Positions 19,509 to 19,710 of a stretch of DNA of 64,000 nucleotides are shown one piece after another (positions within the stretch are counted from its first letter, which is position 1; each line of letters opens with the position of its first letter). Made by a program: the position numbers and the translations under genes. The DNA comes from an uncultured Piscirickettsiaceae bacterium (GTDB lineage: Bacteria; Pseudomonadota; Gammaproteobacteria; GCF-002020875): assembly GCA_964551545.1 (NCBI GenBank), contig CAZKCT010000005.1, forward strand, positions 456 to 64,455, read 5' to 3'. Below the pieces are notes generated by a model. That model ran no database searches, was not told where the DNA came from, and saw nothing but the letters and a program-made list of their open reading frames with translations.

Positions 19509-19654
19509 GTTTTGCTCCTTATGCAGTAATGGAATTCATGTTGAGTGAGAAAAACCTCCAACAGAATTTGCATATGCAATGGATCTGAAAAGAGATGACT
19601 CACGCTGATATTGATACTACCCCCCCTATGTAAGCTGAATTTGTCTGGAATGCC

Positions 19655-19710
19655 CTTTTTTGTAACCGAATGTAACAGAGCATCCTCCACTTACGTTGGC
19701 TTACAAAAAA
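19655..19710. promoter_or_regulatory. 56-bp imperfect palindromic operator candidate in divergent promoter region
   Basis: TTTTTTGTAACCGAATGTAACA ... (spacer) ... ACTTACGTTGGCTTACAAAAAA; arms are reverse complements with TGTAAC / GTTACA-type half sites; a nearly identical left arm recurs at 22938-22960. Confidence 0.45.

Follow-up and report, generated by a model that had tools for sequence, protein, structure and literature searches.

A conserved tandem-repeat box at copper promoters of an uncultured Piscirickettsiaceae bacterium, predicted to be a binding site of the neighbouring OmpR-family response regulator

A 64,000-nucleotide stretch of DNA from an uncultured Piscirickettsiaceae bacterium (hereafter the window) carries copper genes whose promoters share a conspicuous repeated motif, raising the question of what this motif is and which protein recognizes it. 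A preliminary description of the window had read the motif as a 56-bp imperfect palindrome that serves as a dedicated operator at three copper loci. The genes that bear on this question are:

14660-19508, minus strand: copper operon encoding a Met-rich periplasmic protein, DUF4399, three cytochromes c, the CopA P1B-ATPase and DUF411/CopG
19748-20292, plus strand: divergent gene pair ORF103 and ORF73; ORF103 has a C-terminal PCCNKPP, and ORF73 has a membrane anchor and SHOCT
20300-21715, minus strand: sensor histidine kinase (HK), HAMP-HisKA-HATPase_c, whose periplasmic domain has His and Met residues conserved specifically in its clade
21719-22444, minus strand: OmpR/PhoB-family response regulator (RR), Response_reg plus Trans_reg_C, the proposed binder
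22450-22650, minus strand: CopZ-like HMA copper chaperone (Pfam HMA, 48.4 bits), the first intact gene of the regulator operon
22690-22860, minus strand: remnant of a multicopper oxidase (MCO) gene, recognized by aligning the region to the relatives L001 and L002 with tblastn and blastn

The first gene of the copper operon (19140-19508, minus strand) encodes a protein with a signal peptide and very Met-rich composition, including MMPMMMG-type runs, and ORF103 (19748-20059, plus strand) belongs to no known family and ends in PCCNKPP; judged by these residues, the Met-rich protein and ORF103 are both candidate copper-binding proteins. Elsewhere in the window, a 316-amino-acid ORF (33572-34522, minus strand) between rpoE (34519-35169) and rseC (33085-33630) matches RseA_N over residues 12-86 and MucB_RseB_C over residues 219-312, and is either an anti-sigma/RseB fusion or a mechanical artefact of ORF calling. 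A HipA-family toxin kinase gene (54135-55355, minus strand) occupies a low-GC stretch (0.479) amid housekeeping genes.

A repeat search of the divergent copper promoter returns an inverted repeat with arms of 20 nt each at 19656-19675 and 19691-19710, which are 85% complementary and lie 15 nt apart. The reported return of the left arm near 22906-22960 is borne out by the 22-mer TTTTTTGTAACCGAATGTAACA, seen again at 22939-22960 with one mismatch and absent from 100 shuffles (0 expected). The inverted repeat therefore exists as described, but the palindrome is not the functional unit: inside the arm, the TGTAAC half-site recurs after 10 bp in the same direction (TGTAAC-CGAA-TGTAAC), so the unit is a tandem direct repeat. 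Each arm holds one box of the form T5-6-TGTAAs-N4-TGTAAC. A direct repeat with a 10-bp period is the typical box of an OmpR/PhoB-family RR, and TGTAA-N5-TGTAA has the tandem 5-7-bp half-sites and 10-11-bp period by which operators of this family are recognized. Allowing at most one mismatch, TGTAA-N5-TGTAA occurs four times on the two strands of the 64 kb against 1.2 expected, at 19661-75 (plus), 19691-705 (minus), 22944-58 (plus) and 61973-87 (minus), and all four matches fall in the three intergenic regions named by the preliminary description; the spacing TGTAA-N6-TGTAA gives no matches. Two of the boxes lie face to face at 19654-19712, their starts 30 bp apart, and a third stands alone at 22937-22960:

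19654-19677, minus strand: left arm, a tandem RR site; the minus strand reads GTTACATTCGGTTACAAAAAA, toward the minus-strand copper operon
19676-19690, no strand: 15-nt spacer between the cores, conserved in length and not in sequence
19689-19712, plus strand: right arm, a tandem RR site; the plus strand reads ACTTACGTTGGCTTACAAAAAA, toward ORF103
22937-22960, minus strand: single tandem RR site, putatively autoregulatory, upstream of (MCO remnant)-copZ-RR-HK

The left arm consists of columns that are invariant in a seven-species alignment, the spacer has no conserved column in the alignment of relatives, and one half-site of the right arm reads CGTAA.

We scored the window with a weight matrix trained on 20 sites from relatives only, the window being excluded from training. 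The three sites reach 34.7 bits (19654-19677), 33.2 bits (22937-22960) and 25.0 bits (19689-19712), against a best chance match in Markov shuffles of 10.3 bits on average and 20.1 bits at most. The next-best match scores 11.3 bits, and nothing else in the 64 kb scores higher:

61971-61994, minus strand: weak motif match between the cytochrome c and DUF411 genes, 11.3 bits, not supported as a site

This is the third locus of the preliminary description. The repeat claimed there is present (TTACAATGG at 61973-61981 and CCATTGTAT at 62006-62014), but it does not qualify as an operator: its score is at chance level, no site lies upstream of DUF411 in three relatives (L006, L011 and L051), and it fits neither of the promoter classes described below. 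We therefore reject the locus as a member of the regulon, and the proposed dedicated operator coordinating three copper loci holds for two of them. The operon neighbouring the third locus is an MMPL/LolA-like/DUF1302 cluster. A block at 62021-62030 on the minus strand, CTATGATCAG, matches the ORF103 -10 block (19735-19744) letter for letter; it has no regulator box 30 nt upstream and could be either a vestige or chance. Two smaller elements fared similarly. The 12-bp palindrome TTGCATATGCAA is present at 19568-19579, but the window contains 14 perfect palindromes of this length where shuffles give 16.5 ± 3.7, and this one is not conserved in relatives; we discard it as an operator. The flank CTGGAATG said to be shared by two loci does occur at both (19645-19652 and 22906-22913), but 3 nt from the T-run in one case and 25 nt in the other, and thus out of register; the flank that the two loci truly share is ATGTAA-N8-TGTCT-N14, at 19628-19660 and 22911-22943, which replaces it.

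Conservation upstream of orthologous operons, on which the preliminary description had staked its claim, is found in relatives. Homologues of the RR that are 92, 81, 73, 72, 71 and 70% identical retain the RR-HK pair beside copper genes, and the full HMA-RR-HK order is kept where the RR is 72-92% identical; the copper-linked neighbours are MCO, cytochrome c-CopA, DUF4399, DUF411, VTT/DedA, AhpC-TSA, CcmH and CopB. Where the RR is 70-92% identical, motif matches take two forms: the face-to-face pair, 30 bp start to start, in the divergent copper promoter, and isolated boxes in front of MCO, HMA-RR-HK, DUF4399-CopA or cytochrome c-MCO-CopB operons. In these loci only two weak matrix matches (12.2 and 15.2 bits) fall inside genes and the rest lie at copper promoters. 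The same copper operon follows the same site in six relatives (L004, L006, L011, L042, L075 and L078), the ORF103-ORF73 pair adjoins the site in seven, and the right-arm equivalent in L021, L031, L064 and L078 places the proximal TTACA 42-44 nt from the ORF103 ATG. When the divergent region is aligned across seven species, no columns are invariant other than those of the TGTAA half-sites and of two upstream blocks. Both half-sites are kept in 54 of 54 arms (27 loci, 25 distinct arm pairs), and the arms are invariably 15 nt apart in copper-type relatives, against 14-15 nt where the pair is linked to an LTXXQ gene. Two relatives, L006 and L011, have an HMA-RR-HK operon without a box of its own, indicating that autoregulation is not universal. 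The two relatives whose RRs are 91-92% identical and whose gene order is the same, L002 (GCA_018697835.1) and L031 (JABIFG010000287.1), are filed under Marinimicrobia/Neomarinimicrobiota metagenome-assembled genomes (MAGs); this filing is probably mis-binning, the ThrRS of the window being clearly gammaproteobacterial. Homologues of that ThrRS put the bacterium with uncultured marine Gammaproteobacteria, close to Thiotrichales and to Thiohalophilus and Thiolapillus, two genera of sulfur oxidizers.

A motif-first search approaches the same question without reference to gene content. We scanned 185,579 genomes, one per species, with the pattern TGTAA-N5-TGTAA-N13-16-TTACA-N5-TTACA, and annotated the 87 resulting stretches by BLAST against the proteins of the window; they form four groups. 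Group i comprises eight copper loci of close relatives. Group ii comprises about 17 loci in Sedimenticolaceae, Thiohalomonadaceae, Chromatiales, Sulfurimicrobium and others, and in most of these the pair is flanked by an LTXXQ (CpxP/Spy-family) gene on one side and an RR-HK operon on the other, with an RR 57-63% identical to that of the window and the box 43-45 nt before the RR start codon. Group iii consists of near-identical modules of about 130 bp, many per genome, in Methylococcales and Crenothrix, and group iv of unrelated elements in Streptococcus, Bacteroidota and Cereibacter. Outside Methylococcales, the perfect pair occurs in 25 proteobacterial loci, at least 21 of which have an RR of the window's clade within 4 kb. 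The motif tracks this clade across about 25 species. The RRs linked to LTXXQ genes have the same NCBIfam profile as the RR of the window, and their layout mirrors cpxP/cpxR, a divergent arrangement shown experimentally in Pseudomonas. The arrangement in group ii is the main evidence that makes the window's RR clade the candidate binder of the box. The motif is real and evolutionarily conserved, has a fixed geometry and is linked to this clade and to copper genes; it is predicted to be an RR site. The group iii modules (L018, L036, L044, L048, L050, L063, L065, L072, L094, L096 and L101) contain a perfect TGTAAC-N4-TGTAAC / GTTACA-N4-GTTACA pair within about 130 bp, with at least eight copies in MAG ELA484, and some Methylococcales copies lie about 130 bp upstream of an RR-HK pair whose RR is 44% identical to that of the window; they are members of a large regulon or else copies of a dispersed promoter cassette.

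The most probable regulator is encoded in the window itself. The preliminary description had placed it elsewhere, but the OmpR-family RR/HK pair at 20300-22444 shares an operon with one of the sites, and the motif tracks its RR clade. The RR combines a receiver domain (PF00072, 111.2 bits) with a winged-helix Trans_reg_C domain (PF00486, 78.2 bits), as OmpR/PhoB-family regulators do. Its best NCBIfam match is OmpR (263.8 bits, cut-off 331), followed among the models considered here by CpxR (187.6 bits, cut-off 341) and the heavy-metal RR model TIGR01387 (144.0 bits, cut-off 279.2); its identity to the E. coli proteins is 49% for OmpR and 42% for CpxR. The kinase likewise falls below the cut-offs of the EnvZ (204.7 bits, cut-off 415), CpxA (179.9 bits, cut-off 486) and heavy-metal HK TIGR01386 models (145.6 bits, cut-off 292.55). 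Because the RR lies below the curated OmpR, CpxR and heavy-metal cut-offs, its specificity is not readable from a named family, and a PDB sequence search with the RR gave generic family matches only, of no help on specificity. The kinases of copper-linked loci share His/Met positions in their periplasmic domain (residues ~30-190; HLYDRD, LHQTMG, GHEAHVEV, SFHVQV and DFHY), positions that the LTXXQ-linked sister kinases lack. These conserved residues are candidate metal ligands and are suggestive of metal sensing.

The history of the regulator operon explains the single site upstream of it. Within the 585-bp region upstream of copZ, the MCO remnant retains a promoter, the first 20 codons (ATG at 22860) and the last 33 codons (22690-22788), and the same gap is seen in two independent metagenome assemblies. 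The site at 22937-22960 is orthologous to L001 4185-4208, upstream of MCO-HMA-RR-HK. An MCO gene has thus been deleted between its own promoter and copZ, and 22937-22960 is the box of a former MCO-copZ-RR-HK operon like that of L001. Taken together, these observations lead us to propose that the RR at 21719-22444, encoded in the copZ-RR-HK operon, is the regulator that recognizes the box, a reading to which we assign a probability of about 0.8.

The boxes are embedded in promoters of two geometries. An orientation rule holds for both: on the strand of the regulated gene the box reads GTTACA-N4-sTTACAAAAA, with the A-tract end always toward the gene. Class A, at the copper operons here and the LTXXQ genes of group ii, has the form box-N9-(A/G/T)GACA(T)-N7/8-TTACAT-N8-TAT(A/T)nT. 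Class B, at ORF103 here and the RR-HK operons of group ii, has the box, about 25 nt, TATGAT or TATAAA, 6-9 nt and then ATG. The corresponding elements in the window are:

19614-19619, minus strand: candidate -10 of the copper operon, TAGTAT on the minus strand
19628-19646, minus strand: class-A blocks of the first promoter, ATGTAA at 19628-19633 and TGTCT at 19642-19646; the minus strand reads AGACA-N8-TTACAT
19736-19741, plus strand: candidate -10 of ORF103, TATGAT, 6 nt before the ATG at 19748
22911-22929, minus strand: class-A blocks of the second promoter, ATGTAA at 22911-22916 and TGTCT at 22925-22929, spaced as at 19628-19646

The class-A blocks recur at equal spacing in 13 class-A promoters in eight loci and in group ii, and in about 20 species the class-A promoters have a TAT(A/T)nT-like hexamer that follows TTACAT at a distance of 8 nt. 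These blocks could be either extra half-sites or part of the core promoter. We rejected their reading as -35/-10 elements, a sigma-54 or sigma-E promoter or a regular array of half-sites, since the AGACA/TTACAT spacings (13 and 19 bp, with 9 or 21-22 nt to the candidate -10 hexamers) fit none of these. At class B, CTATGATCA at the ORF103 -10 is conserved in relatives, and RR starts in group ii (L029, L037, L055 and others) have TATAAA or TATAAC 7-9 nt before the start codon. A -10 only 6 nt before the ORF103 ATG implies a leaderless mRNA; no Shine-Dalgarno sequence was found at the class-B promoters of ORF103 and of group ii RR-HK operons, and class-B mRNAs, including the regulator mRNAs of group ii, are probably leaderless. 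Measured from the candidate -10 elements, the class-A box would be centred near -61 and the class-B box near -50, placing A one helical turn further upstream. Neither intergenic region contains a sigma-70 consensus promoter, which fits dependence on an activator.

Several known systems resemble parts of this arrangement. CpxR of E. coli and Pseudomonas aeruginosa recognizes GTAAA-N5-6-GTAAA next to a divergent cpxP (LTXXQ) gene (PMC9600279, PMC5063474). Like CpxRA, the window system has an OmpR-family RR, tandem GTAA-type half-sites with N5 between GTAAx pentamers and an intergenic box beside the RR-HK operon; relatives with RRs 57-66% identical lie divergent from an LTXXQ gene with the same box, and E. 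coli CpxR is copper-responsive. Compared directly, the sites read GTAAs-N5-GTAAC and share 4+4 of the 10 core positions of the CpxR box at the right spacing, with C, G or T, not A, as the fifth base. Unlike CpxRA, the window holds no LTXXQ gene, its regulator operon starts with copZ, and the box has a mandatory T-tract and forms a face-to-face pair with a fixed gap of 14-15 nt. OmpR/EnvZ is the best-scoring named family for both RR and HK. OmpR-type boxes are tandem 10-bp half-sites containing GTTACA or TTTAC, and GTTACA-N4-sTTACAAAAA is almost the same as TTTACGATTTGTTACAAAAA, one of the boxes predicted for A. caldus OmpR (PMC9861516); GTTACA is also the ChIP-seq consensus of RisA, an OmpR-family regulator of Bordetella (PMC11019879). 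The window system differs from OmpR/EnvZ in its sensor domain, which is unrelated, and in its targets, which are copper genes rather than porins; no porin gene adjoins any site.

By context the system also resembles CusRS, CopRS and PcoRS, with a periplasm-sensing kinase, an autoregulated OmpR-family RR, divergent promoters and control of copper efflux, oxidation and chaperone genes, but the RR and HK belong to a different subfamily and the targets include cytochromes c, DUF4399 and DUF411. The CusR-type box is ATGACAANNTTGTCAT; searched with up to three mismatches, it gives three matches in the window against 3.06 expected, none of them at copper loci, and we dropped it as the motif. CueR was set aside as well: the MerR-family ORF at 44670-45035 best matches MlrA (36 bits) and no CueR model, and neither intergenic region holds a promoter with a CueR-type dyad in a 19-bp spacer between -35 and -10. 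WalR/VicR binds a direct repeat of TGTAA-type half-sites, TGTWAH-N5-TGTWAH (PMC4168254), but its period is 11 bp, its regulon concerns the cell wall of a Firmicute, and beyond family membership the two RRs are unrelated.

These resemblances leave four other explanations to be weighed against binding by the neighbouring RR. A general OmpR or Cpx-type envelope-stress regulator might recognize the boxes and include the copper loci in a broad stress regulon, a possibility raised by the closeness of the box to published OmpR and CpxR boxes and by a sister clade linked to LTXXQ/CpxP genes rather than copper genes. E. coli CpxR controls copper-inducible promoters (Yamamoto and Ishihama 2006, as cited in PMC5063474), and a similar box could be recognized by an OmpR or Cpx paralogue encoded at another locus. 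We nevertheless consider this unlikely, as the RR operon in the window's lineage begins with copZ, every box found there lies at copper genes and the kinases carry a clade-specific His-rich sensor domain. That the sites are bound by a dedicated copper regulator from another part of the genome, in place of the neighbouring two-component system, is quite unlikely too, given that the motif occurs with the RR clade in about 21 of 25 motif-first loci at a constant distance of 43-45 nt from the RR start codon and has the direct-repeat architecture of OmpR-family RR boxes. In favour of such a regulator, no CueR, CsoR or CopY was found in the window, its only MerR-family protein does not match CueR and the RR lies outside the CusR/CopR subfamily.

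The two remaining explanations concern the motif itself. If the 56-bp palindrome were the functional unit, either as the symmetric operator of a dimeric or tetrameric repressor or as a DNA or RNA hairpin or terminator, the conserved distance between the arms would be expected, and the region does fold (-15.8 kcal/mol, z = -4.1), as any inverted repeat does. However, single arms stand alone at other copper promoters, and 15 species show no covariation, with 81.0% of cells paired against 81.9% in shuffles and the variable N5 positions unpaired in 5-11 of the 15 sequences. The N5 stretches of the two arms agree at 62 of 125 positions, mostly via a shared preference for AA. The stem has the T-run on its 5′ side and the A-run on its 3′ side, whereas an intrinsic terminator would show the opposite order, and no terminator was detected. 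We accordingly reject a hairpin, a terminator and a palindromic operator, and regard this explanation as very improbable. A dispersed repeat or mobile-element end mistaken for an operator is hardly credible. What invites it is the related perfect pair of Methylococcales, found in modules of about 130 bp that are almost identical and number many per genome. In the window and its relatives, however, conservation is confined to the half-sites and promoter blocks, with divergent spacers and flanks; every site lies at the promoter of a copper gene or of the RR operon, and no transposase or target-duplication features are present.

We therefore return to the neighbouring two-component system and propose how it may act. 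Copper would presumably be sensed by the His-rich periplasmic domain of the kinase, which would then phosphorylate the RR. A box made of a T-tract and two TGTAA half-sites 10 bp apart would suit one head-to-tail RR dimer, and the bound RR would recruit RNA polymerase to promoters that have no -35 element. The left box would serve the Met-rich/DUF4399/cytochrome c/CopA/CopG operon from a class-A promoter and the right box ORF103-ORF73 from a class-B promoter with a leaderless mRNA, while the single box at 22937-22960 would drive the regulator's own operon by positive autoregulation, formerly along with the MCO gene. In this model, binding by the RR, activation rather than repression, the transcription starts and copper as the signal are all inferred.

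The system is best described as an unnamed OmpR/Cpx-like subfamily, with the order HMA chaperone-RR-HK, that has been recruited to copper control; its mechanism is a known one. A wider reading, which we hold tentatively and at somewhat less than even odds, is that this HMA-RR-HK subfamily is the master copper regulator of uncultured marine sulfur-oxidizing Gammaproteobacteria. It would have originated from an LTXXQ/CpxP-linked envelope-stress system by gain of a His-rich periplasmic sensor. Its composite promoter would join the tandem box to AGACA 21-22 nt from the -10 and a TTACAT within that spacer, outside standard sigma-70 geometry, and it would act on leaderless mRNAs, including the regulator's own in the sister clade.

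An autoregulated two-component system with a direct-repeat box is a textbook mechanism. The box, the orientation rule and the two promoter geometries together provide a testable definition of the regulon for copper homeostasis in abundant uncultured marine sulfur oxidizers. Copper control in these bacteria would depend on an OmpR/Cpx-like clade rather than on CusRS/CopRS or CueR, and this clade would be linked by descent to CpxP-type envelope-stress circuits. The box may be used to predict copper regulons in metagenomes, and it brings ORF103 with its C-terminal CC motif, DUF4399 and the Met-rich protein together as candidate copper proteins under the regulator.
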